Position numbers and translations under genes: made by a program. 64,000 nt of DNA, taken from IMG/VR virus record IMGVR_UViG_3300030098_002223, one strand, 5' to 3'. Positions 15,768 through 31,483 of the stretch are shown here, in pieces. The DNA comes from an uncultured virus (IMG/VR IMGVR_UViG_3300030098_002223). Its lineage: Duplodnaviria; Heunggongvirae; Uroviricota; Caudoviricetes. Within the stretch, counting starts at the first letter, position 1, and the number at the start of each line of letters is the position of its first letter. The notes below the pieces were generated by a model. The model saw only the letters and a list, made by a program, of their open reading frames with translations, did no database searches and was not told the DNA's origin.

Positions 15768-15985
15768 GGTAAGACCTCTCTGAACTGAGGGAAGGACTCA
15801 AAGTTATGTGGATATAATCCATTGTTCTTTACATTCCTAAAGTATGTCTCAGTTGCACGTATCTTACGAGCTTTGATTGCGGAACCGTCTCGGTTCGGGG
15901 TTGCACTTAACAGCTGTTGTAGCTGTTTGGCAGTCATGCTTTTTAGTTGTATTGCTAATGTGTCGATGTCGGTCATAGTCATCAC
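15764..15985 (-). CDS. hypothetical protein, first gene of the middle operon
   Basis: preceded by GGAAACGCTTATATAG promoter (~16005-16020). Confidence 0.6.
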   Translation of the reverse strand: MMTMTDIDTLAIQLKSMTAKQLQQLLSATPNRDGSAIKARKIRATETYFRNVKNNGLYPHNFESFPQFREVLP

Positions 15986-16159
15986 TCATACGATTAGGGA
16001 GCCACTATATAAGCGTTTCCCCTCTTGAACTGAGAGCCCAGCACGAAAAATATACTGAGAGAAAAAAAACGGGGGCTTTTTCATGCAAAACTATTTATAG
16101 TTCACCTTCTCTATATTATACTATATTAAATCATAGCTCAGTTATGCAATAACTAAGAC

Positions 16160-16576
16160 CTAAAGTAAGGAGCTTAGTTGAGCCTAACTGAGTTATGCTC
16201 TATTACTTAGTAGAGCATGGTTAGTGGAGCCTTCTTATAATATAGGGCTAAACACTACTTACTATACTTTCTTCGAACGAACACTGTTCGCATACTGAAC
16301 CCGAACTGGTTCCGGTTTGGAGGATGAGCTTTAAAGCTTTCGAACCAACCTAAGCTCCACTAAGCATTTTCTCATTGTGGCCTACCGAAGTGCTCAGTCG
16401 AGCCCTAGCCCAACTGAGACAATTTCTCATCGGGGCTGTCCGTTTCTTAATTGAGCCATAATGCTCTACTGAGACAGTTTCTCATCTGGCCCTACCGTAT
16501 CTTAGTAGAGTCATGGAGCCCAACTGAGAAGAGTTTCTCACCCGGCCCTATCGAGCTGAGGGGGGTTTAATTGAGC
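16160..16576. repeat. iteron-like array: 11-bp GCYCNACTRAG in alternating orientation, ~55-bp period
   Basis: ACTRAG cores at 16359, 16413, 16468, 16523, each followed by TTTCTCA; inverted copies at 16393, 16446, 16501. Confidence 0.8.
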
Positions 16577-16633
16577 TGAGTCCACCCGAGTGGAAAAATT
16601 TCCCCTTGAGTGGAAAAAAATTTTTGTAAAAAA

Positions 16634-16722
16634 AAGATGAGCCCCTGACTTATATACCACCGGTGGTAAAGCATTCCTTCCTCGATGTTTTCGCATTCGA
16701 TAACGGAAGTCAAGGGGCGTCA
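16634..16722 (-). ncRNA. putative small structured RNA module 1
   Basis: GCCCCuUGACUU...AAGUCAGGGGC closing stem, internal hairpins, then AUCUU and a U-tract. Confidence 0.5.
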
Positions 16723-16723
16723 A

Positions 16724-16876
16724 TGTAAGGTGGGTAGGAGGATTTAATGTATACCTCCAATGGGTTTATGCCACTACATAGTAGAACCCATACCAGTTTC
16801 GCATCCCTCCGGCAGTTGCCTCTCGGTTTGCTCAATCCTGTGCCTTAGTTCGTGGCGAACTTGTTCGGCCATACCC
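16724..16876 (-). ncRNA. putative structured RNA module 2 (~150 nt)
   Basis: GGGUA/UACCC closure; internal UGGcCGAAC/GUUCGCCA, AUGGGUU/AACCCAU and GGAGG/CCUCC helices; ACCUUACA tail. Confidence 0.6.
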
Positions 16877-16962
16877 GATAAGGAAGAGCTACTTCCTTAA
16901 GTATAAGGTGGGGAGGAATCGCCTCCCCTACGTGTTTGCTTGTTAACCGCTGTGTTCAGCGT

Positions 16963-17295
16963 TTACTTCAAGAGTCCAGCTTTCTTCATAGCTTTCTTCA
17001 AATCGGCTTCTGACATCTTACCAGATGCAAGAGCAGAAACGACTGAATCAACAGAAGGAGCTTTACCTGTTGCTCTCCTTTCGGATTGTAGTTGATGTGT
17101 TCTTGACGCAACCATAGATGCTGTCTTCTCGTTTGTGGAGATGACATCACATATTGCTACAAGGCAATCATACTTTACTCCGGTTGGATATCTACCTGAT
17201 TCTCCAACACCGGTAAATCCTAATGAGTCCAATAAAGAACTCACGAGCTTTTCATCCTTTGGAGCCCAAAGGTAATCCATCTTCGCTTTAGTCAT
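16963..17295 (-). CDS. hypothetical early protein
   Basis: leaderless-type promoter directly upstream (AAGCTTAAATAG...TGGTATAGT-ATG). Confidence 0.7.
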   Translation of the reverse strand: MTKAKMDYLWAPKDEKLVSSLLDSLGFTGVGESGRYPTGVKYDCLVAICDVISTNEKTASMVASRTHQLQSERRATGKAPSVDSVVSALASGKMSEADLKKAMKKAGLLK

Positions 17296-17324
17296 ACTAT
17301 ACCAATGAGTGTGCCTATTTAAGC

Positions 17325-17561
17325 TTATCCCCTGCTGACTATTTGTCTTAGTTCTAAGTTCTCAAAGACTTCTGGGTTAGACAAACGAATCTCACGAGCG
17401 AGTTCCATGTGTCTTCCTCTGCTACCTGTTCCGACAGGAATCATTTCTTTGTATAAACCATACTTACCGTATGGAGTCGTGCCGATTTCTACGAAGTAGT
17501 CGACCTCCTTGCTTCCATTCTTCCAAGGAAGATTGGTCTTAGTCTGAGTTGCTTGGCTCAT
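17325..17561 (-). CDS. hypothetical early protein
   Basis: operator-BRE-TATA promoter directly upstream. Confidence 0.7.
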   Translation of the reverse strand: MSQATQTKTNLPWKNGSKEVDYFVEIGTTPYGKYGLYKEMIPVGTGSRGRHMELAREIRLSNPEVFENLELRQIVSRG

Positions 17562-17613
17562 GTAATACCAAGAGGGAGTCCCTATATAAAGCTTTTTTCA
17601 CACAAGTGGAAAA
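17562..17613 (-). promoter_or_regulatory. early promoter with CAC-N4-GTG operator
   Basis: TTTTCCACTTGTGTGAAAAAAGCTTTATATAG...TGGTATTAC-ATG. Confidence 0.8.
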
Positions 17614-17614
17614 A

Positions 17615-17755
17615 TAAGATGCGACTTCACCAATGTGGTATATACTTTGAAACAAGTCACATTGGGAGCGGTCGCCACAGGGTAACGTGTTGTTAACGAA
17701 CAGAGGTTACCCATCAGGGTGTGACCTGCCACCAGACAAAAGGATATCCTTCACG
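17615..17755 (-). ncRNA. putative structured RNA module 3
   Basis: GGGUAAC/GUUACCC helix, GCGAC..CCAAUGUG/CACAUUGG..GUCGC helix, AUCUUA tail. Confidence 0.5.
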
Positions 17756-18010
17756 TAAGGTGGGCGTAAACAAGATAAAGAGAATTACTTCATAGTTTCG
17801 ACGAGGAAGTATATAACAGGGACTAAGTGAGGCAAAAGGTGATACATAATTTTAGCTACACGTCGTTAATCAACTAAGATGCGCATCGACCGGAAAGGGA
17901 TTGGTCAGCACTTGTTCAGCTTCAGTTTGTTATTGCTTATCGTCTACTTGCGTATGGTCTATTCTTGTCTTGGAACTCAGGTCACGTGTTAAGCACGTGC
18001 CTTAACTGTA
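17756..18010 (-). ncRNA. putative promoter-driven ncRNA module 4 (~250 nt)
   Basis: own TATA promoter at ~18030-18042 with no ATG at the expected TSS; AGACAAGA/UCUUGUUU long-range stem; ends CCCACCUUAC. Confidence 0.55.
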
Positions 18011-18029
18011 ATATGAGATAGGGGTGTCC

Positions 18030-18266
18030 CTATATAAGCTTTACCCCCATACTCTTAATCTCACTGACATACACGTCACCAAGTTCAAACTCACCATAGG
18101 TGTAGTCTGACTTAACAGCACAGAACCATCGAGCGTGAGGATTCTTTGCTTCGTTCTCAGGAGCTTGGTATTTTTTTAATACTCTCCATTCAAAGCCACG
18201 TGGGCCAGTCCAGACCTCATAAGGGTCATCAGTTTTGCGAGTCTTACCACATAAGTTTTTGCTCAT
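18030..18266 (-). CDS. hypothetical early protein (78 aa)
   Basis: start corrected to MSKNLCG after the early promoter. Confidence 0.7.
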   Translation of the reverse strand: MSKNLCGKTRKTDDPYEVWTGPRGFEWRVLKKYQAPENEAKNPHARWFCAVKSDYTYGEFELGDVYVSEIKSMGVKLI

Positions 18267-18317
18267 ATTATACCAACGAGTGTGTCTATATAAAGGTTTT
18301 TTCACTCTTGTGGAAAA
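18267..18317 (-). promoter_or_regulatory. early promoter with CAC-N4-GTG operator
   Basis: TTTTCCACAAGAGTGAAAAAACCTTTATATAG...TGGTATAAT-ATG. Confidence 0.8.
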
Positions 18318-18437
18318 GCGGGGGAGAGGCCCTACTCCCCCTTGAGGTGTCCGAAAAACAAACGAGCTATTTACTGGCCTTTTTGATAATCTTATTAGTT
18401 TGTTTCTTCCAACTGCGTTTGAGTGGTTTGTCGTAGC

Positions 18438-18554
18438 TCACAGGTTGCACCCACAACAGGGAGCATCTTCACACCCACAGAGGACAATATAGTCCCCTGC
18501 GCTGTCAATACCAGAGATGACCATGTCATCTAAAATATCTAAGATGCTTTTCAC
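18438..18554 (-). CDS. Cys-rich microprotein with CEDAPCCGC motif
   Basis: manual translation from GTG; GTGA overlaps on both sides. Confidence 0.5.
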   Translation of the reverse strand: MKSILDILDDMVISGIDSAGDYIVLCGCEDAPCCGCNL

Positions 18555-18694
18555 TTTCTCACATCCTCAGCCAATCCCAAACGAATTGCTGTTAGTTGGT
18601 CCAATACTCCAGAATCAACTTGATTCTTTTGCATGGTTCTGCGTGCTACTCTTCGGAAACGGTGGGCGTTTCTCATGTCTTGGATTTTACTCAT
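18551..18694 (-). CDS. hypothetical microprotein (47 aa)
   Basis: manual translation MSKIQDMRNAHRF...; GGAG SD. Confidence 0.5.
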   Translation of the reverse strand: MSKIQDMRNAHRFRRVARRTMQKNQVDSGVLDQLTAIRLGLAEDVRK

Positions 18695-18695
18695 A

Positions 18696-18845
18696 TTACT
18701 CCATTGAACAGGCCTTTATAAAGGTTTCTCTGTCAAAGCGTGGGTTGTGCTCGGCGCACATTCCGGCGAAGTCTCGGACCATGTTAAGGTCTGCGTCATG
18801 CTTGGCTAATATTTGGGCGATAGCCCTAAAGTGTTTTCTACTCAT
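18696..18845 (-). CDS. small early protein (49 aa, NPRFDRxxF type)
   Basis: start corrected to MSRKHF after the early promoter. Confidence 0.65.
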   Translation of the reverse strand: MSRKHFRAIAQILAKHDADLNMVRDFAGMCAEHNPRFDRETFIKACSME

Positions 18846-18896
18846 AATATACCAACGGGTAGGGCTATATAAAGGTTTTTTCACGCAAGTGGAAAA
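18846..18896 (-). promoter_or_regulatory. early promoter with CAC-N4-GTG operator
   Basis: TTTTCCACTTGCGTGAAAAAACCTTTATATAG...TGGTATATT-ATG. Confidence 0.8.
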
Positions 18897-18935
18897 AGGG
18901 AGCAGGGGAAAACAATAAAACCCTGCTCTTGCTAG

Positions 18936-19061
18936 TATAAGGTCGCCCAGCTGCCCCACCACCTAGGGGTGGCCGACTCACTGGGCTGGGGTTGCGTCGC
19001 TTCGTTTAACGCTCGGGCGGGCTTATGTCACTGGCCCTTCGCCATCACTTGTCAGGCGACC
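18936..19061 (-). ncRNA. putative GC-rich structured RNA module 5 (~120 nt)
   Basis: GGUCGCC/GGCGACC terminal stem, internal GGGC/GCCC and CCACC/GGUGG helices, ACCUUAUA end. Confidence 0.6.
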
Positions 19062-19067
19062 CCTGTT

Positions 19068-19171
19068 GTTATCCCATTTAATAGAGAGTTGCTTTTTAGG
19101 CTTACAATCTAACTTGCCCTTTCCGTTGGGTGCACCTACTCCTACGGCCACATCTTACAGTCTGGGATAAC
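19068..19171 (-). ncRNA. putative structured RNA module 6 (~105 nt)
   Basis: perfect 9-bp GUUAUCCCA/UGGGAUAAC closure. Confidence 0.5.
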
Positions 19172-19180
19172 TCACGGAAT

Positions 19181-19279
19181 CTAAAGATTTTTTTCCATTT
19201 CTTTGCGTATTCTTCTTAGTGCTTTTGTATTGGCGTATATCTGTTTTAAAGATAAATGCGCCCACGGGTGTTTTGCCAT
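19181..19279 (-). CDS. basic microprotein (32 aa)
   Basis: MAKHPWAHL... directly after a TATA..TGGTATAGT promoter. Confidence 0.55.
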   Translation of the reverse strand: MAKHPWAHLSLKQIYANTKALRRIRKEMEKNL

Positions 19280-19315
19280 ACTATACCATAGAGTGACCCT
19301 ATATAAGGGTTTCTC

Positions 19316-19438
19316 TCAGTCTCCTGTCCAGAATGTTGCGAACATCTCACCTTCGCAATCTTCACACAGTCCGCCGAATAGTTCGACCTCATCAAGCCCG
19401 CAGTCCTCGCAACTGCCAAATGGTTCTCCTGTTCTCAT
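19316..19438 (-). CDS. Zn-finger microprotein (40 aa)
   Basis: CEDC...CEDC; directly after the early promoter. Confidence 0.6.
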   Translation of the reverse strand: MRTGEPFGSCEDCGLDEVELFGGLCEDCEGEMFATFWTGD

Positions 19439-19490
19439 AATATACCAACTGAGAGTGTCTATATAAAGGTTTTTTCACTTGAGTGGAAAA
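19439..19490 (-). promoter_or_regulatory. early promoter with CAC-N4-GTG operator
   Basis: TTTTCCACTCAAGTGAAAAAACCTTTATATAG...TGGTATATT-ATG. Confidence 0.8.
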
Positions 19491-19493
19491 GTT

Positions 19494-19537
19494 TTTCTCA
19501 CTTTCTCACCCACGCGGGTTTCTCACCCACGCGGGTT
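19494..19537. repeat. short tandem repeat TTTCTCACCCACGCGGG x2 plus a partial TTTCTCAC
   Basis: direct reading. Confidence 0.8.
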
Positions 19538-19890
19538 AAATCCCTCGTTTTGAGGGCCTTTATAGCTTTAGTGCTTCTGCGTATACTTCAGTAGGTAGAA
19601 TTACTTTGCAGGTATCTTGATTTAACAATTTATACCTTAGTGCTCTCACTACTGCGATTTTCGTTTTTAAATCCATTTTGCTTTACCTCCATTTTTGGGT
19701 TTAGGCTGAGGTGGCCGGAGCCACCCCATACCCCCCGTTAAAGGTCCTTAATGCTCGTGCATCTGGTCAATGATATCATGGACTATGTCAAGCATATAAC
19801 TACGGGTTATGACGTTGTCATGTCCGTATCTATTCTTTAACATTAGTTTCCAATCATCATCAGAAATTGTTATTTCGAATTTCATTTATT

Positions 19891-19998
19891 TCACCTCCAT
19901 TCCCAATTACAATCCCAACATAAGAAATCGTTGGTCATCCTAAAACGGTATAATACCGTTTGTTTCTTGCAGTGTTTGCAGTTTTTTGGTTCTTTCAT
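19891..19998 (-). CDS. Zn-finger microprotein (35 aa)
   Basis: CKHC...CWDC; GAGGT SD. Confidence 0.55.
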   Translation of the reverse strand: MKEPKNCKHCKKQTVLYRFRMTNDFLCWDCNWEWR

Positions 19999-20297
19999 TG
20001 TTTTACCTCTTTTTTTGTTAATTCGTAATTTTCGTATACGTATCCGTCGGCTTTCATTTCTTTACCTTCTTCTATTGCATCATCTATTTTTTTAGTTAGT
20101 TGTTGTAATCTTTCAATTACTTCTAAACCATATTTTCTAAGTTGGTGACCTTTCATTTCATCACCTTTGAAATCTGTGATTTCACTTAGATATTTTACAT
20201 GGGTTCTTAATTCCCAAAATGCATTTGCTTCATGTCTGTATTGGTCTTTAGACATTGGCTGACTTGTTTCGGCTCTTATCATATGTGTTCTTATCAT
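19995..20297 (-). CDS. hypothetical protein
   Basis: start moved downstream of the UCCG hairpin (MIRTH). Confidence 0.6.
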   Translation of the reverse strand: MIRTHMIRAETSQPMSKDQYRHEANAFWELRTHVKYLSEITDFKGDEMKGHQLRKYGLEVIERLQQLTKKIDDAIEEGKEMKADGYVYENYELTKKEVKQ

Positions 20298-20360
20298 ATT
20301 TTTTTTCCTACCAAATTTTTGGTTTGACTCGACCGGTCCGGAGACCGGCCGTAGCCCCAA

Positions 20361-20696
20361 TTATTTGTTCCCTCCGTATTTGTATCCCTTGTTGCCTACT
20401 CCGGCCATGCCTTGAAATTTTGGTGCCTCACCGTATTTCTGGACATGGTCCCAAACTAACTTAGCTTCATGAGCTAAGCCTTCGTATACGTTCTCAAATT
20501 CAGCCATAACTATTAGGCTGATATCTTGACCCTTTCGGGGTCTGTGTTTTGATAACCTCATTTGAGGGTCTGAGGTTATACCGTAGTATACAGCTTCTTT
20601 AGTTGCTTCGCTATCGAAATCAACATCTACGAAGTGATAAGAAGATTTTTCTTCTTGTTGGGCTAATCGATACACGAAATACTTATCTTCCTGCAT
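20361..20696 (-). CDS. GIY-YIG nuclease family protein
   Basis: YFVYRL...VYYGITSDPQMRLSKH...E. Confidence 0.7.
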   Translation of the reverse strand: MQEDKYFVYRLAQQEEKSSYHFVDVDFDSEATKEAVYYGITSDPQMRLSKHRPRKGQDISLIVMAEFENVYEGLAHEAKLVWDHVQKYGEAPKFQGMAGVGNKGYKYGGNK

Positions 20697-20887
20697 TATT
20701 TCATACCGTCCGTGACTTCATAAAAACACTCGGTGCATAACTCAGCATTGAAAACCTCACGGGTTGCCTCAGTCCAAATACCCGATGATGCACAAGACTC
20801 ACACCATATGGTGTGGTCATCCTCGATAGAGGATTCTTCATACCCTAATTGGATAAGCTCACTTTCAGTCAAATTGTTTTCCGACAT
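20696..20887 (-). CDS. Zn-finger small protein
   Basis: CESC...CTEC; first gene of the minus arm. Confidence 0.6.
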   Translation of the reverse strand: MSENNLTESELIQLGYEESSIEDDHTIWCESCASSGIWTEATREVFNAELCTECFYEVTDGMK

Positions 20888-21140
20888 ACACTCTTAACCC
20901 CATACCCCTTTATAAAGATTTTAAGCCAATTCGTGCTTAGCTCCCTTTTAGATAGCTTCAAAATACAACCCGTCCCCCGTCTAAAAAATAGGCCTCACTT
21001 CATACATTCTCTGCACTACCCCCTTAAACAAATCGAGTGAAATTTTGAACCTTCTCTATATATCTTAATATAGATATAGTAGGTATCTCTATTAACAACA
21101 ATATTAAGCTCTACTAAGCACTCCTCAGTTCGAGGACAGT

Positions 21141-21153
21141 AACCTTTATATAG
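21141..21153 (+). promoter_or_regulatory. BRE-TATA promoter of the plus arm
   Basis: AACCTTTATATAG ~24 nt before ATG 21177. Confidence 0.7.
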
Positions 21154-21176
21154 GCCAAAAGGTTAAAATATACTGT

Positions 21177-21665
21177 ATGACAAAAAGTACGCAGAACTCC
21201 ATAAAGTGGACATGTAATGAAATCAGGGATTTGCTATTAGCCAAGAACAAAGCGTATGGCGACAGTGCATTAGAACCTGACAATATTTTTAGTAAGCTCG
21301 ACTCAGCACAGGCTATCTGTGCAAGAATCGATGACAAGCTCAGCAGGATAAAGAATGTAGGGCTTAACGACAAGACAGAGGATACACTTGATGACCTCAT
21401 AGGGTATTTAATTTTGCTCAAAATTGCGCGGGAGCAAGACGGCAGCAAGGCTACATTGTGGACTAGCTGTACTTGTGTCCATGGGTGGCATAATTGTACA
21501 TGCCAAGATGGAGGCGTTTGCTCAGTAGAGCTTAATGAAGAGGATGATGGCTACGTGCCTCCATGGAGCTTAGAGCTAGAGAAAGAAGTAAGAGTCTTTG
21601 TTAGTGACCCCGGCGACGAGATGAAGCCTATTGAGAAGAATGCGGAGTTGTGTGACAATGAGTGA
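21177..21665 (+). CDS. Nucleotide-modification-associated domain 1 (DUF1599-like) protein
   Basis: KNKAYGDSA...RIDDKLSRI...EDTLDDLIGYLIL; Cys-rich C-terminal extension. Confidence 0.7.
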   Translation: MTKSTQNSIKWTCNEIRDLLLAKNKAYGDSALEPDNIFSKLDSAQAICARIDDKLSRIKNVGLNDKTEDTLDDLIGYLILLKIAREQDGSKATLWTSCTCVHGWHNCTCQDGGVCSVELNEEDDGYVPPWSLELEKEVRVFVSDPGDEMKPIEKNAELCDNE

Positions 21666-22626
21666 TTGGACAGCAAGCCATATGCGGCTAAGTCCTTCTA
21701 AGATAAATACTTATTTGAAGTGTCCCCGTGAATTTTACTACAACTATATAGCTAAGCTTCCTCAGAAAAAGACTATACATCTATTCCGTGGTACGTTGGT
21801 GCACCAGATATTAGAAGACTTGTTTAAGAAACAATTTAAAACTTTACCTCAGTGGGAGAAAGGAGTCCCAAAATTATGGGTACAACGCCAGTTCGAAGAT
21901 GGATGGGAAGAAAAGATAGCTAAACACAAATGGTTGTGGGAAGTACACACTGACGCAGAGATGGATGCGATGTACAAAGAGACAGAAGCATTACTACAGA
22001 ACTTCGTCGCCTCAGTAAATAAGAAACTTGGTGAAATGGTTGATTGGAAGATATTCAAAAACAAGCAACAGGCTTGGAATGCTGTAGCACCTAAGTATGC
22101 TGAGAAGTGGGTTAAGTCAAAAGAGTACGCTATAGTTGGAGTTATTGATGTTGTTTGTAATGATTTCGATGGTGGCACTACCTTGTTAGATTATAAGACC
22201 TCCAAAAGATATGGACCATACCTACCAGAAGAATACTACAGACAACTTATTATTTACGCTTTCCTATACACATTAGAGATGGGAGAGATGCCTAACTTCG
22301 TAGGTGTAAACTATCTACGATTTGACGATACCTTTTTTGTAAAGGTTGGTCAGTCTGAACTTGATGAGGCTAGGGACCTTATTAAGATGGTACACGACTG
22401 CATAAAGGAACGAGAGGAATATGAAGATAGATATGAACAGAAGCCGCAAAACCTGTGTAAGTGGTGTTCATTCCATAAATCACAGGGCGGCCCATGTGAT
22501 GCAGAGATACCTAAATGGGAACCCACGTTCAAGAAGCGTAAAAAAGAAAACTATTCTGACATCGATTCATCTTTAAAGAAAGATTTAGATGTAGAGTCTC
22601 AAGCCCAGTTTCCAGACTTCGATTGA
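21658..22626 (+). CDS. PD-(D/E)xK nuclease, Cas4/RecB-like with Fe-S cysteines
   Basis: LSPSKI..YLKCP, GTLVH, GVID...LDYKT, QL..Y, CKWC...C. Confidence 0.85.
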   Translation: MSDWTASHMRLSPSKINTYLKCPREFYYNYIAKLPQKKTIHLFRGTLVHQILEDLFKKQFKTLPQWEKGVPKLWVQRQFEDGWEEKIAKHKWLWEVHTDAEMDAMYKETEALLQNFVASVNKKLGEMVDWKIFKNKQQAWNAVAPKYAEKWVKSKEYAIVGVIDVVCNDFDGGTTLLDYKTSKRYGPYLPEEYYRQLIIYAFLYTLEMGEMPNFVGVNYLRFDDTFFVKVGQSELDEARDLIKMVHDCIKEREEYEDRYEQKPQNLCKWCSFHKSQGGPCDAEIPKWEPTFKKRKKENYSDIDSSLKKDLDVESQAQFPDFD

Positions 22627-22664
22627 GGGTAATCTTTAAATAGAAGCGTCATGTAAATAAATAC

Positions 22665-23672
22665 ATGGCGCGCGATGATTATGGTGCTATTTCCGTAATC
22701 TCTGATGAAGAACGAGAAGCATTAGGATTAGGAGGTAGAAAACCAGACGATGAAGAAGAAGGTCTATTTGAAACTTTAGGTAAAGCAGCTGACAAAGCAG
22801 GCGATACTAAAGTAGGACAAAAGATAGGTTCTATACTCACGGTTTTAATTCTCGCGTTTTTTGGTAGTGGTACTGGTGATATAGGTATGCTACAAGATAT
22901 TTTTGGAGGAGAAGAAGAGGAACCCATGTTAAAGGGTGGATGCATGGACCCAACTGCTATAAATTACAAACCGGATGCAGATTTTGATAACGGCAGTTGT
23001 ACTTTTCCTCCTCCTGTAAAATATGGTTGTATGGATTCATCGGCTACTAATTACGATAATCAAGCTACCCATGATAATGGTAGATGTCAATACTTAAATC
23101 AGAACGGTACAGGTAATGAAACTCAAACTAATGAAACAGTTTATGGATGTATGGACATTGAAGCTAACAATTACAATGATAGAGCCACAGAAGATGATGG
23201 TTCTTGTGACTATGAAAACGAAGAGAACCACTGTAACCATACACAGTTAGTTCTATGGAATGGGCTACAGTATGGTAACTACTCGAGGGAAGATAATACT
23301 TTAGATATATATGTCGATATGGACACTAATTGTGATGACCCTGACGAGCCTCTACCTGTGTTGGTGTATTATGACGTGGGTCACTTTTTCCTTGACGAAG
23401 AGGGAAACGAAACGACCTTAATATATGACACCTTCGTATATGGAGAGACATTCTTTAATGTGTCAGGTTGGGTTGAAGATACTCATTGGTTAAACTCAGG
23501 AGCAGAACCATATGAAGAAACGTTCGATAATTATACGGACGGCGTTTATTATTTTTATGCAAGTTTCTTAGCTGATTGGAATAATACGGGAGAATATGAA
23601 TGGGTTACAAGCATTACAAATTACCCGTACTACAGCGATGAAGATGAAGCATTTAGACTGGAGGAGGAATGA
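22665..23672 (+). CDS. Membrane-anchored acidic protein with three GCMDxxAxNY repeats
   Basis: one TM segment, three GCMD..A.NY...DNG/DDG.C repeats, many N-x-S/T sequons. Confidence 0.75.
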   Translation: MARDDYGAISVISDEEREALGLGGRKPDDEEEGLFETLGKAADKAGDTKVGQKIGSILTVLILAFFGSGTGDIGMLQDIFGGEEEEPMLKGGCMDPTAINYKPDADFDNGSCTFPPPVKYGCMDSSATNYDNQATHDNGRCQYLNQNGTGNETQTNETVYGCMDIEANNYNDRATEDDGSCDYENEENHCNHTQLVLWNGLQYGNYSREDNTLDIYVDMDTNCDDPDEPLPVLVYYDVGHFFLDEEGNETTLIYDTFVYGETFFNVSGWVEDTHWLNSGAEPYEETFDNYTDGVYYFYASFLADWNNTGEYEWVTSITNYPYYSDEDEAFRLEEE

Positions 23673-23794
23673 AGGCTAGCGAAATGCTAGTTTTAACGAA
23701 TATGTTAGGAAAAATAATCTCTGAATTGGATGATGTAAAAGCAATGATAAAAAAGAATACATTTGAAGAATCATATGGGGATGAGGAGGAGTGA
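23669..23794 (+). CDS. hypothetical (41 aa)
   Basis: manual translation MKASEMLVL...; GGAGG SD; overlaps on both sides. Confidence 0.5.
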   Translation: MKASEMLVLTNMLGKIISELDDVKAMIKKNTFEESYGDEEE

Positions 23795-24315
23795 TAGAAT
23801 GGATAGGAGTGTTAGAGATACTAGCAGTGGTAATGGCGAGCATAGCAGTTGTTATTGCTTTCGCGGTACTTGTCAATTTTGCGCGCCAAGCATTAAGACA
23901 AGTAAAACCAAAACTAGTACCTTTAAAAAAACAGAGACAGGAGAAAACACAAATGAGTAAAGAAAAAGGAGAAGGTGTAACATTTAACGATATTTTTATG
24001 TTTATGATTGCAGTACCTTTAGTATTACTCTGGGTAGGTTTTGCAGGTTTTGTTATACACAGCGGGCTGCAAGACGATTCTGTTCTTGAACAAATCGAAG
24101 GTTATACAACTTTGATAGCTATCCTAGGAGGACCAGCCCTGCTGATTATCAAAGATGCTTTAGATGTCTGGAAACAAGAACAAGCTGAGAAAACCGCATT
24201 TTATAAAGTAAAAGCACAAGCTGTTATTGATTATAATGATGCTGCTCAGAAACAATCTCAGATGATAGAAGCCAAGGCACAAGAACAAGAACATAAGATG
24301 GAGAACAAAAAATGA
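23791..24315 (+). CDS. three-TM membrane protein (holin-like topology)
   Basis: three hydrophobic segments; possible internal start at 23953. Confidence 0.65.
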   Translation: MIEWIGVLEILAVVMASIAVVIAFAVLVNFARQALRQVKPKLVPLKKQRQEKTQMSKEKGEGVTFNDIFMFMIAVPLVLLWVGFAGFVIHSGLQDDSVLEQIEGYTTLIAILGGPALLIIKDALDVWKQEQAEKTAFYKVKAQAVIDYNDAAQKQSQMIEAKAQEQEHKMENKK

Positions 24316-24470
24316 ACGACTTTGAAGGAGAAAGAGTGCTAGAACAGCTAGAAGGTATACATGAACTTCTAGCTTATCTAGTAGAAGCACTCGACACAGA
24401 GAGCTGCTGTTGCAGCGTAGAAGAAAACTGCTGTTGCAGTAAAGACAACGAATGTTGTGAGGAAGAATAA
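24312..24470 (+). CDS. Cys-cluster microprotein (52 aa)
   Basis: manual translation ...SCCCSVEENCCCSKDNECCEEE; ATGA overlap. Confidence 0.55.
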   Translation: MNDFEGERVLEQLEGIHELLAYLVEALDTESCCCSVEENCCCSKDNECCEEE

Positions 24471-24471
24471 C

Positions 24472-24735
24472 ATGGTAGAAAAAATAACAAAAGGGGAACA
24501 TTTCCACGGGAATAACCCAGATATGAAGCTATACTTCGAAAAACCAGACAAAGCTCAAATCGATGAGATGAATTACAAAAAGCCCACTACATCATTCAAA
24601 GATGTACAAAAACCAGAAGCCGCAGAAGGTAAACCTATCTATATGGATGGTTCAGACGTAATGTCTACTCCTAATGCAGATTTCATTGGTGACAAAGCAA
24701 ATTTTGCACCGGGCTCAAAACGTAATACATTATAA
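24472..24735 (+). CDS. hypothetical protein
   Basis: MVEKITKG...; SD GAGG. Confidence 0.6.
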   Translation: MVEKITKGEHFHGNNPDMKLYFEKPDKAQIDEMNYKKPTTSFKDVQKPEAAEGKPIYMDGSDVMSTPNADFIGDKANFAPGSKRNTL

Positions 24736-24860
24736 ACTGAGTAATCTTTATATAGTAGGCTGTCCTACTATGTATAGGCTCTCGCTGTAGGGCCATGGCA
24801 TCACAGGATTCTTATCGCAAGTGTCTTTGTGAGAGCCCCCAAATATGGAGATATCAACAT

Positions 24861-25304
24861 ATGAACAATACAAATAATGAAACAGCTGGAAATGAGACAG
24901 CAACTAACGAAACCTCTGATGATGGTAACGTTACTGCAATCATCGACACTGTAAAAGAGTCTGGAATGTTAGACACAATAATGGATGAACCATTACTAAT
25001 GGCACTTTGTGCTGTTGTATTAGGTATGGGTGGTTATATCGCTTATACTGTACCAGCAGTCAAAGAATTAGTTTTTAAATATATTAAGAACAATGAAGCT
25101 GAGTTAATGGACATGCTAGATAAAAATCTAACAAAAGCCCAGATGAAAGCTTTTGAAAAGCTAGACGAACAAGCGCAAAAGCACGTCAAAGATTCTTTAG
25201 TCCGAAATGTACTAATTACAGCTTGGGACGAGAAAGATGACGAGCTAGCAAGCCTTGTAAAATCTAAAGTCAAAGCAGCCCTCGATGAAGGGAAAGAGCT
25301 TTGA
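24861..25304 (+). CDS. single-TM protein with sequon-rich N-terminus
   Basis: GGAG SD before ATG 24861; NNT/NET/NVT sequons, TM helix, helical C-terminus. Confidence 0.7.
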   Translation: MNNTNNETAGNETATNETSDDGNVTAIIDTVKESGMLDTIMDEPLLMALCAVVLGMGGYIAYTVPAVKELVFKYIKNNEAELMDMLDKNLTKAQMKAFEKLDEQAQKHVKDSLVRNVLITAWDEKDDELASLVKSKVKAALDEGKEL

Positions 25305-25636
25305 ACGTAGAGGAATACGAGCAAAGATTAAGGCAGAGGGTTGGAGAAGCTGAATATGAACGTCATAAAGAGCTTGTCCGCCTTCTGGCGCGCAATCTTG
25401 CTCTTGAAGATATACTTTGGGAGGAAATTCTTATATGTATTCGGGATGTTAACGCTAGAACAGAGCTCTTGCGCCAAAGAAATACAATCGTTAAAGACAT
25501 ACATACAGAATTCCGAGCGTTAAATATTGAAGTGCCAACAACTGTAGAGAAAAACACTGAAGCATTTGCTTCTTTCTTAGGAGAATTATCGGATGACGAC
25601 AACAAAACCAAGTCTGAAGGGCCTACTGACAGGTAA
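25301..25636 (+). CDS. probable terminase small subunit
   Basis: helical 111-aa ORF directly upstream of and overlapping TerL. Confidence 0.6.
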   Translation: MNVEEYEQRLRQRVGEAEYERHKELVRLLARNLALEDILWEEILICIRDVNARTELLRQRNTIVKDIHTEFRALNIEVPTTVEKNTEAFASFLGELSDDDNKTKSEGPTDR

Positions 25637-27260
25637 AGGCGGTATAGATTCAAGAAGTCTAGAAGATATATTCCAAAACTGTAGAAACGATAAAGACAAG
25701 ATGCGTAAATTAATACGTGCCTTTTGTTCTACTTACCTAATAGATGGTAAACAAAGACCATTACTCCTAAGACCATTACAAGAAGATATAGTTTTAGAAT
25801 GTCTAATGACAAGAACAGATGATAAACAAACTAAATTAGCAATTTTAGCTCCACGAGGCAGTGGGAAATCATTCGCTTTGTCTGTAGCAGTAACTATATA
25901 TATGTTTTTTAATAGATTTAGAGATTTAGTATTTATACTGGCTCCTACAGAAGACCAAGCTGCATTAATCTTTAATTACGTTTATAGACATTTTGCTGAT
26001 AATACTTTCCTAAATGGGTTAGTAGCTAATTATAGATTTCATAATAAGCCCAACATAACACTTAAGGGGGGCACCATAATGCGTAGGGCTCCATTAGCGC
26101 CTAGTAACCAAGGTCAAGCTATACGAGGACAACACCCTACATTCTTAGTAGTTGATGAGTCTCCACTCATCGACGATAGATTATTCATTGATAATGTAGA
26201 GCCTGCTATTGTAGCGAATAAAGCTCCTTTTATTAATCTCGGTACACCAAAATCTAAAGATAATCATATGTATAGATATTTATACGATGATGGCTATGCA
26301 GATACGTTTAAGAGATTACATTATACATGGAGAGACGCCGTAAAGAAAGGGGATGCTTATTCTGCTCCCTATACTGATGAAGAAATGTTAGATAAGATGA
26401 CTGAATGGGGAGAAGATTCTATCTACTGGAGGACAGAATACGAGTGTGAGTTTGTAGAGTCTGTATCGAGTGTATTTAATCCAGAAAAAATTAAGGCGTG
26501 TTACGATGATTACCAAATTACTAGACTTGATGGGGATGGAGAGCAGGGAGGAGGCAATATTACTGTTGGTGTTGACATTGGCAAATCTGTTAACTCTACT
26601 GTTATTAGTGCATGGTCCCTTGAAAAGTCTGATACAGAAAATATTGCTAGACTTATATACGTTGAAGAAATCAACGCCAGAACTGGTGGACATGATATTC
26701 CATACCAACGTAGACGTATCATGGACGTTACCAATAAGCTGGGTGCTAGTCGGCTCATTGTTGATTGTACTGGTATTGGGGGTGCAGTTGAGCAAGATTT
26801 GCGGCTGGCGTGCTTAGATTCTAATGTACATTTCGTACCATTCGTATTTACAGGAGGACCAAAAGGAACTAAAACACAAATGTATAGAGATTTTCAGTCC
26901 TACATACAACAAGGACGAGTAAAAGTACCAAATCCAGAGAATTTAGAACCAGATATGGCTAAGTTAATACATAAATGGACTAGAGAACATATAGATTTAG
27001 AATTTACTATGGATGCTGCTAACAAAACTGAAAAGATTTCTGCCCCATCAGGTAAACATGATGATTATTGTGATAGTTCAGCTATGGCGTTACATGCTAC
27101 ATTAAGTATGTTACCTATGTCTGGGAACTTTGGACAGAGTATTATATCATCTCCTATTAATAAACAAAATTATAGTGGAGGAAACCATAGTTCTCAAAAA
27201 CTTTTTACTACGCGACAACGAAAAGTTACACTAAATAAGCAACCTTTAAGGGGTTTATGA
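25593..27260 (+). CDS. terL: Terminase large subunit
   Basis: LRPLQ, APRGSGKS, LVVDE, GTP, GVDIG, HDDYCDS. Confidence 0.95.
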   Translation: MTTTKPSLKGLLTGKGGIDSRSLEDIFQNCRNDKDKMRKLIRAFCSTYLIDGKQRPLLLRPLQEDIVLECLMTRTDDKQTKLAILAPRGSGKSFALSVAVTIYMFFNRFRDLVFILAPTEDQAALIFNYVYRHFADNTFLNGLVANYRFHNKPNITLKGGTIMRRAPLAPSNQGQAIRGQHPTFLVVDESPLIDDRLFIDNVEPAIVANKAPFINLGTPKSKDNHMYRYLYDDGYADTFKRLHYTWRDAVKKGDAYSAPYTDEEMLDKMTEWGEDSIYWRTEYECEFVESVSSVFNPEKIKACYDDYQITRLDGDGEQGGGNITVGVDIGKSVNSTVISAWSLEKSDTENIARLIYVEEINARTGGHDIPYQRRRIMDVTNKLGASRLIVDCTGIGGAVEQDLRLACLDSNVHFVPFVFTGGPKGTKTQMYRDFQSYIQQGRVKVPNPENLEPDMAKLIHKWTREHIDLEFTMDAANKTEKISAPSGKHDDYCDSSAMALHATLSMLPMSGNFGQSIISSPINKQNYSGGNHSSQKLFTTRQRKVTLNKQPLRGL

Positions 27261-27301
27261 GAAAAGCTTTATATACTCATCACAGTTAATATTAAATAGC
27301 C

Positions 27302-28606
27302 ATGTCGTTTATAGATAGAGTTAGACGTACTTTCGCCAGAGTTGGTGGAAATCCGTCATATAAAAAAGACGACCCTAGAAGTTACGGGGAAGGAGTTATT
27401 AAACGTCTTAAAATCAATAGAGGTTTTAGTCTTAACAAAGATAAGAACTATGAACCACATATAGGTCAAAACAGAACTTATATGAACGTTTATTTATCAG
27501 ACCCTATTGTTAGAAGTTTAATTGACTTACCGTGCTTATACGCTGTTAAAGATAATTTTGATATTGTTACAACAGACGATGGAATTAGGGAAGAGTTAGA
27601 AGAAATGTTCCGCGATATAAATATTGAACATATTTTATATGGTTGGTTAAGAAATGCTAGAATTTTTGGTACAGGTTATTTAGAATGGACTGGAGACAAT
27701 TTAATTTTAAGGTCTAGTCAAAACATGTACGTAAAGAGGAATGAGCACGGTCAGATAGAATACTATTATCAAAAAGTAGGAGACGATGATGAGAATATCA
27801 GATTCGAGGAAAACGAAATAATAGAATTGAAAAATAATCAATTCGATGATTATGCATATGGTTTATCTGACATACACCCAATATTATATTTAGTTGATTT
27901 AAAGGATTATGCAGAAAGAGATATAGGAGCAGCATTAAATAAATATGCATCTAGTAGATTTGATGTTAGTGCTGGTTTACCTGATATGCCTTATGGTCCT
28001 GATAAGATTAATGAAATTGTCGACGCATTTAATACTCTAGCACCCGGTGAAGATATAATTCACGGGAACGACATAGTAATCAAAGAACTACAAGGTACTC
28101 AACGTGCTTTTGAGTATGGTAAATATACAGATGATATATTAGATAAAATACATGTAGCTTTGAAAACACCACGCACTATGTGGACAGACCCAGAAAAAGC
28201 ACGACCTATTTTTGAACCATACGTAAGATACTTACAAACTATGGTAGAGGGAGCACTTAATTCCCAGCTTATGCCTCAATTAGAAAAGGGAGAAGCAAAA
28301 TTTAAGTTTAGGCAAATTAACGTTGAAGACGCATTCACTAAAGCCAAGACTGATATGATTTATCTATCAGAAGGTGTATTATCACCCGGCGAAGTTAGAG
28401 AGGAAAGAGGACTTGACCCTGAAGGAGTTGCAGAATTAGATATGGAAACTTCTGAAGATATAAAGGCTTCACCAATAAAACGAGAACAGAGTGATAAGAA
28501 TGCTAACATATCTGGAGGAAAGAACCAAGATAAAAGGGAAGAATCCTCTAGAGCACAAAATAGGGGCAACAAGCCCTCCGCAAACGCAACAGGAGATAGA
28601 GCATGA
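27302..28606 (+). CDS. Portal protein
   Basis: position after TerL; IFGTGY, YGLS, GVLSPGEVREERGL motifs. Confidence 0.9.
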   Translation: MSFIDRVRRTFARVGGNPSYKKDDPRSYGEGVIKRLKINRGFSLNKDKNYEPHIGQNRTYMNVYLSDPIVRSLIDLPCLYAVKDNFDIVTTDDGIREELEEMFRDINIEHILYGWLRNARIFGTGYLEWTGDNLILRSSQNMYVKRNEHGQIEYYYQKVGDDDENIRFEENEIIELKNNQFDDYAYGLSDIHPILYLVDLKDYAERDIGAALNKYASSRFDVSAGLPDMPYGPDKINEIVDAFNTLAPGEDIIHGNDIVIKELQGTQRAFEYGKYTDDILDKIHVALKTPRTMWTDPEKARPIFEPYVRYLQTMVEGALNSQLMPQLEKGEAKFKFRQINVEDAFTKAKTDMIYLSEGVLSPGEVREERGLDPEGVAELDMETSEDIKASPIKREQSDKNANISGGKNQDKREESSRAQNRGNKPSANATGDRA

Positions 28607-29859
28607 CATTTGAAAAATGTATGATACAAACTAAATCAAACCTGAAGAAGAGGGGTTTTGAGAACCCTGAAGAGATTGCAGCTGGCATGTGTAGCATGTG
28701 GGCGCAAGAGAATGGCGTAGAGCGGGAATTTGCAGAGGGCAAATCTACTGAACCTGTTCGTAGGTCATTCGCTTTAGAAGTGGCTGAGGGTGAAGATATG
28801 ACATTTTCCAGCGATGAGGGAATCGACTCTGTATCATTCCCAGTAATCGCTATTACCTCCGGACCTCATGAATATGAGGTTGATGGAGAGCAACATAAAG
28901 TTTATATTGAGGGAGGACAGTTAAAAGATAATTTACATCAATTTACTGAACTACCGATTTATATTGACCATCAAAGAACAGAAGAGGACTTAATCGGCAT
29001 GGCTGCTAATCCCGAACTGTTTGAGATGGATAATGGAAAGACCGCTATTAAGATGCTAGCAACAGTATCTAATAAATATGGCCGTGGTCAAGAAGTAATG
29101 GAGAAAGTTAAGGAAGGAGACATGACACATGTTAGTATCGATTGGTTTTCAAACGATATTGATGTTATGGGTGACAATTACGCCACCAATATTCGTCCTA
29201 CAGAGGTAAGTTTCATTGACAATGAAAAGATGGACCCAGTCTGTAAAGAATGTACTATAGAAACGAAATGTGATTCACAAGAACCGGAAGACGACCACGA
29301 CTGTGGTTGTGGTGGCCAAGAAGGAAATTGTGGATGTGAGTCAGAACAAACAGAGGTAAATATGTCAGAAGAGACAAAAGAAACAACTGTAAAATCCGAC
29401 GCAGAAAGCATTGTCGAACGCGAGTTCGCTTCCCTACGCTCACAACTTGAAGCAGCAGAAGCATCTAAAAAGGAAATCGAATCTGAATTCAAAGCAGCTA
29501 TGAAAGAATTAGAAACTTTCAAGAAAGCAGAAGAAGAAAGATTAGAGAAAGAAGCAGAAGCAAGAAAAGTTGAAACAGTAGAAGCAATTATATCCAAAGA
29601 AATCTTATTCGGTTCAATCGAAGAAGATAAAAAGGATGCTCGTGTCGAAGAACTTTCCGCTTGGGATGAATCCAGATTGACTGGATTTAGCGATGCTCTA
29701 GCAGCAATGCCAGAGCCAAGCAACGACGTCGAACGTTCTTTCGGAAAAGGTAAATCAGCTGATGAAGGTGAAGTACCAGAAACCAAAAGAGAGTTCGGTA
29801 TGAAAGTAGAGGACGGTAAAATTAGAATAAACCGTGACTACTACCTAAAAGGTGATTAA
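28603..29859 (+). CDS. Prohead protease fused to scaffold
   Basis: PIYIDH...VSID...EVSFI protease motifs followed by an acidic coiled coil. Confidence 0.85.
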   Translation: MTFEKCMIQTKSNLKKRGFENPEEIAAGMCSMWAQENGVEREFAEGKSTEPVRRSFALEVAEGEDMTFSSDEGIDSVSFPVIAITSGPHEYEVDGEQHKVYIEGGQLKDNLHQFTELPIYIDHQRTEEDLIGMAANPELFEMDNGKTAIKMLATVSNKYGRGQEVMEKVKEGDMTHVSIDWFSNDIDVMGDNYATNIRPTEVSFIDNEKMDPVCKECTIETKCDSQEPEDDHDCGCGGQEGNCGCESEQTEVNMSEETKETTVKSDAESIVEREFASLRSQLEAAEASKKEIESEFKAAMKELETFKKAEEERLEKEAEARKVETVEAIISKEILFGSIEEDKKDARVEELSAWDESRLTGFSDALAAMPEPSNDVERSFGKGKSADEGEVPETKREFGMKVEDGKIRINRDYYLKGD

Positions 29860-29861
29860 AC

Positions 29862-30278
29862 ATGGCAACAGAAATTTTAGTAAACGACGGAGGAGCACCA
29901 GCTCGTATTCTTCCTTTCTTAGCAGGGGAAGATATAAGTGCCGGTGAAGCTCTCACAGCTAGTGCTACCGCAGACATGACTGCTGTACTAGCAACACAAG
30001 CAAACATCAATATCATAGGTTTTGCTCTTACCGATGCCGCATCTGGAGACATGTGCAGCGTTATCACAGGTAAAGGAGTAATACTCAATGTACAATGTTT
30101 ACCAACCACAGGTGGATACCCACAGATGATTGGTGCAGCAGCATCTGGTCAGTTGGCCAAACAAACCGCAGCAGAAGCAGCAAAAGGAAACGGTCCTGTC
30201 GCAGTTCCTGTTAAGGTTACCAACGAAGCTGGAAGTGGACTTGCCGTTGCAGGTCTTTGGAGATGTCTAATAATTTAA
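29862..30278 (+). CDS. capsid cement/decoration protein
   Basis: AGEDISAG...IGFALTDAASGD...V..G; precedes the MCP. Confidence 0.7.
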   Translation: MATEILVNDGGAPARILPFLAGEDISAGEALTASATADMTAVLATQANINIIGFALTDAASGDMCSVITGKGVILNVQCLPTTGGYPQMIGAAASGQLAKQTAAEAAKGNGPVAVPVKVTNEAGSGLAVAGLWRCLII

Positions 30279-30289
30279 GGAGATAAGAT

Positions 30290-31414
30290 ATGGTTCAACC
30301 CGGTCCAACTAGTGGTCTTTTGACCAGTCTGAACTCAGGTTCATACGCCAACACTGGCGGAACAGGAGAGCGAGTACTCATTGATTATAAAGATGCAATT
30401 ATCGACTACAAGGTCACAGACCTTCCAGTCATGCAATTCTTTGCAGACCCAATGACTACAGATACAGGCGGTAATATTGATATTACTTTCGCAAAACCAT
30501 CTATGACGATGGAACAAATAGAAGAAGGAACAACTCCTCAATACCAACACACAAAACTACGCTCCGAGAGAGTAGCAGTTAAAGAGTGGGGTATTGCAGT
30601 AGGTGTAACCCGAAGAATGATTGAAGATTCAAGATTCAACGAAGTAGAAATGGCTCTTAACGAAGCACGTCGCGCTGTCGACAGACACTTGACCGAACAC
30701 GTTACAAATGTCATTTTCGGTATTGGTAGCACTACACTAGGAACTGGTGTAGACGTAGGTGCAGGTTTTACTGACATCTTAGCTGCCGGTGCAGCTTCTA
30801 CTGAAGCAAACATCTCTGATTTCTCAAAGGCACCTAATGGAGCTTTCTTAGGAACAGCCGCAACTTTTGCAGGCAGATTGGATGAATATGCTAATCAATC
30901 ATTAGCTACCTTACAAGCATGCAGTTCTTATACAGCAGCTTCATCAAACGGTACAAGCTCTTTCGCTTTAGTCGATGTTGCAGCAGCAATTAGTAGGATG
31001 AGCAAGCTTGGTTACAATGCAACTCACTTATTCATTTCACCTTCACACTATGAAAATATGTTGAAGATGGCTGATTTTGTAAGTGCATTCACCAACGCAC
31101 AAGGAACTAATGGAAGTATCCAAGGTGGAGGTAACTTTATGCCTACAACTGGAGACAACCCATTCAGCTCCATGCTAGCAACAGGTGGTTTAGTTGGTTC
31201 ATTATATGGATTAGCAGTAATTGTGAATCCATGGGTTCCAGCAGGAAGATTTGGTGTATTCGACCTTTCAGTTAAGCCAATGGCTTATGTAGAAAGACGC
31301 GGACTCACTGTAGAAGAAGCCAATCCCGGATTCGGAATTGTCGGTTCCTACATGTCTATGAGATACGGATTGAAGGTCGTTAGACCAGAAGCCGGTCAAA
31401 TCGTCATCAGTTAA
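30290..31414 (+). CDS. Major capsid protein (HK97 fold)
   Basis: IEEG, VKEWG...VTRRMIEDS, GSLYGLAVIVNPWVP, RYGLKVVRPEA. Confidence 0.92.
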   Translation: MVQPGPTSGLLTSLNSGSYANTGGTGERVLIDYKDAIIDYKVTDLPVMQFFADPMTTDTGGNIDITFAKPSMTMEQIEEGTTPQYQHTKLRSERVAVKEWGIAVGVTRRMIEDSRFNEVEMALNEARRAVDRHLTEHVTNVIFGIGSTTLGTGVDVGAGFTDILAAGAASTEANISDFSKAPNGAFLGTAATFAGRLDEYANQSLATLQACSSYTAASSNGTSSFALVDVAAAISRMSKLGYNATHLFISPSHYENMLKMADFVSAFTNAQGTNGSIQGGGNFMPTTGDNPFSSMLATGGLVGSLYGLAVIVNPWVPAGRFGVFDLSVKPMAYVERRGLTVEEANPGFGIVGSYMSMRYGLKVVRPEAGQIVIS

Positions 31415-31446
31415 AGTTAATTGATTAATTTTAATAGATAAGGCCC

Positions 31447-31483
31447 GAAGGGAGCCTGCGTTAGCAAATCCCTTCACCTTACA
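31447..31483 (+). terminator. stem-loop plus ACCTTACA after the MCP gene
   Basis: GAAGGGA/TCCCTTC 7-bp stem. Confidence 0.55.

Follow-up and report, generated by a model that had tools for sequence, protein, structure and literature searches.

The stretch analysed here (the window) comprises 64,000 nt of an uncultured virus, IMG/VR record IMGVR_UViG_3300030098_002223, and our subject is a short motif, ACCTTA, that flanks a manA RNA gene in its early region. The window encodes a family B DNA polymerase, a large terminase, a portal, an HK97-type capsid protein and a tail tape-measure protein, the equipment of a tailed double-stranded DNA virus. The minus strand carries the genes from position 1 to approximately 21000, and the late genes lie on the plus strand. 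The small early genes are leaderless and follow highly uniform promoters of archaeal type, composed of a transcription factor B recognition element (BRE) and a TATA box. At 46 sites in the window and four relatives these canonical promoters consist of an A-rich stretch and [C/G/T]CTT(T)A(T/A)A(T/A)A(G/A), followed by ATG at 16–22 nt from the TATA end (mostly 19–21 nt). The style of these promoters suggests an archaeal-type host. Among the matches listed, at least 120 relatives of the terminase show 85–94% identity, which places the virus in a common ocean virus group.

A preliminary description of the window proposed that a helix followed by ACCUUA is a 3' signature common to several RNA modules and to the capsid gene. 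The strings and coordinates on which it was based are all confirmed in the sequence: ACCTTACA is found at 16731–16724 (minus strand) and 31476–31483 (plus strand), ACCTTATA at 16909–16902 and 18943–18936, ACCTTA at 17761–17756, ATCTTA at 17620–17615 and ATCTT at 16638–16634 (all minus strand). We nevertheless favor, with about even confidence, the view that there is no single helix+ACCUUA signal, and that its copies form a composite pattern around one known RNA, manA.

manA and its two flanks

The manA RNA lies between a leaderless gene of 110 amino acids (aa) and a second folded RNA, module X, which ends in a run of eight U (Table 1). The match spans the whole Rfam model (positions 1–192), and its score of 67.3 bits exceeds the gathering score of 55.2 bits, as do the scores of 15 of the 17 related loci. 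Relatives were collected by pattern scans and a protein-anchored scan; a metagenome scan with a 15-mer was dominated by chance matches, and manA-like loci made up 2 of its 120. An alignment of 14 copies with their flanks contains 46 consensus pairs, 16 of which show compensatory changes, including pairs of the 5' hairpin P1 and one pair of the closing helix. The minimum-free-energy (MFE) fold of 16965–16625 (minus strand) has a z-score of -3.6 and presents, in order, the stop codon, two hairpins, unpaired ACCUUAUACU, P1, the multi-branch core of manA closed by GGGUA/UACCC, unpaired ACCUUACAUU, the three-way junction of module X, and U8. Both octamers flanking manA (ACCUUAYA) are unpaired in the MFE fold as well as in the consensus fold of the 14 sequences.

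Table 1. Coordinates of the features discussed in the text, in positions of the window.
Feature	Position	Strand	Context
Leaderless 110-aa open reading frame (ORF)	16963–17295	-	Canonical promoter, ATG 19 nt after TATA end
3' hairpin GGGGAGG-cgatt-CCTCCCC	16910–16928	-	After the 110-aa gene
ACCUUAUA, 9-nt unpaired linker	16902–16909	-	Joins the 3' hairpin of the 110-aa gene to manA P1
manA RNA (Rfam RF01745)	16727–16899	-	cmscan 67.3 bits, E 5.9e-15; middle domain of the gene-manA-module X unit
ACCUUACA, single-stranded manA 3' tail, linker to module X	16724–16731	-	After the closing helix GGGUA/UACCC
Module X, three-way-junction RNA	16639–16721	-	MFE fold; outer stem begins 3 nt past the manA tail
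AUCUU + U8, end of the unit resembling an oligo-U terminator	16628–16638	-	Relatives keep the U run, not ATCTT
Four tandem units of ~55 nt, core ...GAUGAGAAA(n)UGUCUCAG...	16366–16553	-	Immediately past the U8 terminator
ATCTTA variant, part of a T-run terminator	17615–17620	-	Before the next promoter palindrome; relatives CCACTTTTT, CCAATTTTT, CCTGTTTTT
ACCTTA in 5' strand and loop of a helix	17756–17761	-	Not a tail
Canonical promoter GCTTATATAG	~18043–18034	-	No ATG at the usual distance; drives ~390 nt free of ORFs
44-nt insertion starting with ACCTTATA (18943–18936)	18900–18943	-	Holds hairpin GAGCAGGG/CCCTGCTC
ORF-free module of ~235 nt	19180–18945	-	After a 32-aa ORF; conserved in G002, G003, G005, G006
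Palindrome TTTTTCCAC-N4-GTG(G)AAAAA	16583–16616, 17595–17612, 18299–18316, 18878–18895, 19472–19489		Directly before BRE/TATA of early promoters
111-aa ORF	20361–20696	-	Weak similarity to GIY-YIG nucleases (E 0.002, short of the Pfam cut-off); in the cassette-shuffled early region
Phytoene/squalene-synthase-like ORF; MoxR/CbbQ-type AAA ATPase and VWA partner	8356–8955, 14132–15310, 11655–13766	-	Among replication genes
Hairpin after the capsid gene + ACCTTACA	31447–31483	+	Stem covaries in G002, G005, G006

P1 and the outer stem of module X begin 3–5 nt after the two motifs and covary, which indicates that transcription arrives from upstream; the transcript of the 110-aa ORF most likely carries manA. 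The RNA is thus found 3' of an ORF and is followed by module X and U8, with no gene after it, rather than in a 5' untranslated region (UTR). Module X is 97% identical in the related genome G005, where it directly follows the homologue of the 110-aa gene, and its outer stem is kept in G003 through a compensating C/G insertion. One G005 locus (L081, ~2130–2144) has 15 N in place of precisely those bases that join the gene's 3' hairpin to module X, so that the manA-less junction is legible only in part there. The 110-aa ORF has homologues in 14 viral loci; its protein has no Pfam, PHROG or PDB relative, and its AlphaFold model has a mean predicted local distance difference test score (pLDDT) of 57. 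The protein was considered as a binder of the motif and set aside, as none of the three databases provides a relative.

The downstream motif is the unpaired 3' tail of manA itself. The Rfam consensus ends in ...CCuCCCaCcuu with the last five positions unpaired, and ACCUU at 16731–16727 aligns to model positions 188–192 ('aCcuu'), which makes 16724–16731 the known tail of a known RNA family. All 14 aligned copies have an A behind the closing helix. CCTTA comes immediately after this A in seven of them and after one extra base (AT or AA) in four; in the other three it is replaced, twice by ATCCTAT... running into a T run and once by ACCCCAAT followed by a canonical-looking TATA. With L251 and L254 added, CCTTA is kept in 13 of 16 copies, so that a helix with an ACCUUA tail is conserved at this site. 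An extra base between A and CC (AUCC or AACC) is present in 5 of the 16 tails, and the tails of L251, L260 and L262 run into T8–T9.

Tails of similar composition extend beyond this clade. Among 15 more distant manA-like loci, some of which sit behind bacterial-type promoters, the tail is ACCTTA in five, ACTTAA in four, ACCTTTT, ACTTTTT or ATTTTTT in three and of another form in two, with one unresolved. In 76 mostly cyanophage-type loci (L001–L076), 42 tails begin with ACC, 13 with CCC and 7 with T. An AC(C)UU(A/U) tail thus belongs to the manA family at large, with CCUUAY as the form it takes in this clade. Many cyanophage-type tails continue into a run of at least six T or adjoin a tRNA gene, located within ~10–20 nt of the RNA; this context fits stand-alone or 3'-terminal RNAs better than 5'-UTR switches. 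We also considered a pairing of the tail CUUA with an invariant internal-loop UAAG. It is possible on paper, but both sides are invariant in this clade, and the cyanophage-type tails (ACCC, ACAC, CCC, TTTT) do not keep the complementarity. The nearest record, G001, has no match to 15700–21300 or to manA and appears to begin downstream of this region (its capsid gene lies at 8240, versus 30290 in the window).

The upstream motif occupies an unpaired linker. In 15 genomes with the order gene, hairpin, manA, the linker contains ACCTTAT exactly in 12, GCCTTAT in one and ATATTAT in two (shifted by a base in one of these), and the stretch from hairpin to P1 is free of indels throughout. The ACCTTAT columns are conserved in 13–15 of the 15 genomes, compared with 5–11 of 15 for many columns of the hairpin. 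The preceding hairpin takes unrelated forms (GGGGAGG/CCTCCCC, GAGCA/TGCTC, GGGCA/TGCCC, GGGTA/TACCC and GCGGGGG/CCCCCGC), which combine freely with four covarying forms of P1. L253 carries yet another hairpin, GGGGTAA/TTACCCC, then ACCTTACA and then a different module instead of manA. The assertion that the stems differ while the tail is kept is therefore borne out at 16902, but it fails at 17756, 18936, 31476 and the ATCTT(A) sites. A pairing of the octamer with UAAGG in the 5' strand of P1 was rejected, as it is lost in relatives whose P1 reads AUGGAAG or AACGGGG.

Other occurrences of the motif

At three sites a hairpin precedes the motif as described: GGGGAGG/CCTCCCC (16928–16910) and GAAGGGA/TCCCTTC (31447–31475) abut it, and GCTGGGC ends 1 nt ahead of 18943. 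The remaining copies have varied identities. ACCTTA at 17756 had been placed a few nucleotides past a stem, which is mistaken: CCACC (17763–17759) pairs with GGTGG (17733–17729), and this helix covaries (CCGCC/GGTGG in G006, CTCCG/CGGAG in G002), so that the motif is a helix strand. The copy at 18936 is the edge of an indel. The insertion that it opens is absent from G002 and G006, and G003 reads ACTTTACA. The copy at 31476 is a lineage-specific tail: where the window has ACCTTACA after the capsid-gene hairpin, G002, G005 and G006 have ACTAAGAT, ACTATATA and AACATTTT, and in these three relatives (A/G)CCTTAA occupies the hairpin loop. The supposed variants ATCTT and ATCTTA are the starts of ordinary U-run terminators, whose true U runs are located at 16628–16635 and 17610–17614; relatives keep the T run and not ATCTT. 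One signature common to the RNA modules and the capsid gene is thus not upheld, since the sites at 17756, 18936, 31476 and ATCTT(A) are not conserved as such.

In the window ACCTTA is rarer than expected, with 33 occurrences versus 49.0±7.6 in shuffled sequences. A hairpin of at least 6 bp followed by ACCTTA within 0–1 nt occurs three times (0.37 expected), which ranks 12th of 1093 hexamers by count, and several other hexamers are equally enriched. The scan that the preliminary description itself put forward, for a stem followed by A[CT]CTTA within 0–2 nt, does not bear out an enrichment: 4 of 89 sites qualify against 1.55±1.25 in 300 first-order Markov simulations, 25 of which reach four. From the window alone, the evidence that stem and motif co-occur more often than by chance is weak. 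The unusual feature is the local clustering of the copies: of five exact copies of CCACCTTA in 64 kb, three are on the transcribed strand within 16726–17763, and of ten copies of ACCTTA[CT]A four are intergenic on the transcribed strand.

Origin of the upstream junction and competing readings

The letters of the octamer at 16902–16909 are those of the 5' half of the TATA box in the manA promoters of sister genomes. In G005 (L126 and L160) manA is found elsewhere, after a homologue of the ORF-free module at 19180–18945, which precedes its promoter. There, ACAACCTTATATAGG and a 19-nt spacer ending in TTGTATATT stand before manA nucleotide 1, and CTTATATAG plus 19 nt lands on the first base of the Rfam match (L126:381). 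The same spacing is used by the leaderless genes. L264 and L273 share the design, with AAGCTTATATAG and 19 nt before P1, and L193 has a canonical-looking TATA right after manA. The spacing suggests that manA in G005, L264 and L273 is a self-standing gene with a transcript starting at P1. If the 20 nt that separate the two TATAT repeats are taken out of the G005 promoter, the result is ACCTTATAT-TTAAC, the arrangement of the window clade. manA sits at different places in G005 and in the window, with the two octamers as breakpoints, and since module X directly follows the 110-aa gene in G005, the octamers bound the manA cassette.

These arrangements suggest a history in which a 20-bp deletion between the TATAT repeats of a manA promoter left ACCTTATAT-TTA. 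The deletion would have turned a self-standing manA gene into a passenger on the transcript of the upstream gene. The manA tail, for its part, probably marks the 3' boundary of the manA unit. The linker ACCUUAUA is unpaired and carries the letters of this family's TATA 5' half; the octamer at 16902 is most likely a promoter remnant and cassette junction under some remaining constraint. By the standard of this virus it is not a working promoter. Against a profile built from 31 unique leaderless promoters (training minimum 7.2 bits, median 21.6 bits), the five sites score -15.2, -4.7, -15.9, -7.1 and -12.3 bits, and the ACCTTAYA sites have neither the A-rich BRE nor the ATAG end.

Several observations weigh against a composite of this kind. 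ACCTTAT is better kept than the next two columns of the linker (10 of 15 and 9 of 15) and than many hairpin columns. The five sites not being working promoters, a mere scar should decay, and the conservation of ACCTTAT is more than a neutral scar should show, as far as related sequences can tell. P1 covaries in the fused type, so the octamer at 16902 is transcribed and could act as RNA. The capsid-gene hairpins of all four lineages have a single-stranded CCUUA, located in the loop in three of them and in the tail in the case of the window; the composite view must treat this recurrence as coincidence. The 20-bp indel may instead be an insertion, and the sequences are related, so that the counts given above are not phylogenetically independent. 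The conservation of ACCTTAT, together with the recurrence of CCUUA at the capsid-gene hairpin, keeps two other explanations alive.

The stronger of the two, which we consider unlikely, takes single-stranded CCUUA beside a G+C-rich helix as an RNA element that a protein or endonuclease of the host or the virus recognizes. Such a factor might trim or mark unit boundaries, release manA from a gene-manA-module X precursor and mark the 3' end of the capsid mRNA. Both flanks of manA carry CCUUA in unpaired linkers of 9–10 nt, the motif persists after four unrelated hairpins and, in L253, where manA is absent, and the capsid-gene hairpin offers CCUUA as loop in G002, G005 and G006 and as tail in the window. 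The closed multimers that manA is reported to form in vitro (preprint 10.64898/2026.07.01.735769) might also favor discrete units. However, in genomes where manA has its own promoter the 5' copy would lie outside the transcript, L118, L254, L263 and L289 carry ATATTATG, CATCTGATG or ATTTATG instead, and CCTTA is absent from 3 of 16 manA tails. A similar tail (ACUUAAU) in bacterial-type manA-like RNAs removes the need for an archaeon-specific factor, the neighbouring small ORFs yielded no candidate nuclease, and stem plus motif is not enriched in the window. The fuller version, in which a host or viral factor would cut or cap boundaries at CCUUA in tail or loop, free the cage-forming manA and mark the capsid mRNA end, seems somewhat less probable again.

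Comparably doubtful is the idea that helix+ACCUU(A/U) is the terminator grammar of this virus family, in which U-run forms stop the polymerase and UUAYA forms act as pause sites or weakened terminators, so that a fraction of the transcripts continues into manA and module X. Within 9 nt past intergenic hairpins of five genomes enrichment is highest for the 5-mers CTTTT (11 versus 0.88 expected), ACCTT (11 versus 1.2), CCTTT (10 versus 1.04) and CCTTA (6 versus 0.86), though these counts include homologous sites of related genomes and overlapping registers. G002 and G006 carry CCCCCC-ACCTTTTCCAC, the end of module C reads ACCTTATA, ACTTTACA or (C/T)CCTTTTCC depending on the relative, and the manA tails that run into T8–T9 in L251, L260 and L262 agree with such a grammar. 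Archaeal intrinsic termination, however, needs oligo-U. The motif sites do have hairpins, but the tails are UUAUA or UUACA, with just two consecutive U in the window, and P1 of manA and module X must be transcribed through the sites.

The suggestion that the motif is a tRNA-like acceptor end (discriminator plus CC), cut by RNase Z or completed by the CCA-adding enzyme, is not supported. A 5-bp hairpin directly precedes the closing helix of manA, as the T arm precedes the 3' strand of the acceptor, and after the closing helix comes an invariant A and then usually CC, in line with the 42 of 76 cyanophage-type tails that begin with ACC. ARAGORN finds no tRNA gene in the window, the spacing from A to CC varies in 5 of 16 tails (A(U/A)CC), three more lack CCTTA, and 13 of the 76 cyanophage-type tails begin with CCC and 7 with T, with ACCA in two only. 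The motif copies at 16902 and 31476 come after simple stems of 5–7 bp. As the helix topology of manA resembles an acceptor/T-arm stack, we retain a very slight probability for this reading, and for manA only.

Mimicry of the 16S rRNA 3' end, with pairing to Shine-Dalgarno (SD) sequences of the UAAGGUG type, is close to refuted: CCUCC does adjoin the motif at 16916–16912 and in the last hairpin of manA, but there it forms base-paired 3' arms and is unconserved (it is absent from the GAGCA/TGCTC and GGGCA/TGCCC hairpin types), ACCUUA itself lacks CCUCC and has only ACCU in common with the anti-SD sequence, and upstream of 56 window ORFs GGAGG is found 8 times, AGGAG 11, GGTGA 5 and TAAGGT not once.

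The early region and known systems

The surroundings of manA are rich in exchangeable units. The palindrome TTTCCAC-N4-GTG has 13 matches, whereas 3.2 are expected, and these are clustered at 16583–19489. Its T run can end the upstream unit while its A run serves as the next BRE, so that the element can act as a compact terminator-promoter cassette. Early modules are swapped between relatives at the palindrome/promoter junctions. The tandem ~55-nt units downstream of U8 have related units in G005 and G006 and no match in Rfam. Another non-coding RNA gene probably occupies the ORF-free region at 18010–17615 (minus strand). G002, G003 and G006 share the first ~240 nt of this region, and the last ~150 nt have been exchanged among relatives and also in contig run X1, which holds a relative with module swaps. 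Among the protein-coding genes, the phytoene/squalene-synthase-like ORF, the AAA ATPase and its VWA partner are possible auxiliary genes. The first of these had no relative in the genome contig collection searched, and the capsid protein had no tblastn match in a phage collection.

manA is an orphan RNA, counted among the riboswitch candidates since 2010. Its original account (Weinberg et al., 2010, PMC2864571) drew on marine sequences, T4-like cyanophages and two gamma-proteobacteria, and presented the RNA as a candidate riboswitch of potential 5' UTRs. According to the 2026 preprint (10.64898/2026.07.01.735769), manA forms closed RNA assemblies (cages) of 8, 10 and 60 subunits in vitro; its accessible part does not discuss tails or termini, and in the accessible portions of publications citing RF01745 we found no discussion of the 3' tail. 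We found no publication that combines manA RNA with an archaeal virus. For this very common ocean virus group, with its archaeal-style promoters, the description of manA as a 5'-UTR element does not hold. The RNA is a discrete unit there, under its own promoter or carried behind a small gene, with conserved letters at its ends. This arrangement narrows the possible roles of manA and indicates which RNA ends should be made for experiments. The flagged motif, taken by itself, provides no evidence for a new processing system.

The element in the window resembles the manA family in its full-length match, multi-branch fold, 5' hairpin P1, closing helix and unpaired AC(C)UU tail. It differs from the described manA RNAs in belonging to a tailed virus with BRE/TATA promoters and leaderless genes, in lying downstream of a gene (or behind its own promoter in sister genomes) and before a folded module and a U run, and in its clade-specific tail CCUUAY. 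The PeSL elements of T4-type phages are promoter-stem-loop cassettes of hyperplastic early regions, and the small early units of the window are similarly bounded by a hairpin or palindrome and a conserved promoter. The ACCTTAYA junctions, by contrast, lack the A-rich BRE and the ATAG end and lie inside a transcription unit. Intrinsic terminators share the G+C-rich hairpin and the pyrimidine-rich stretch, and relatives have T5–T9 at the same positions, but the stretch in the window is UUAYA and not an oligo-U tract. The likeness to a tRNA 3' end extends to the order of helix, A and CC in manA, whereas the terminal A is absent, the spacing varies (AUCC, AACC) and the other motif sites have no cloverleaf. 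We therefore assign the element to a known RNA family and not to a new class of signal; its setting is unusual, its conserved tail is specific to the clade, and its upstream junction is most likely derived from a promoter.

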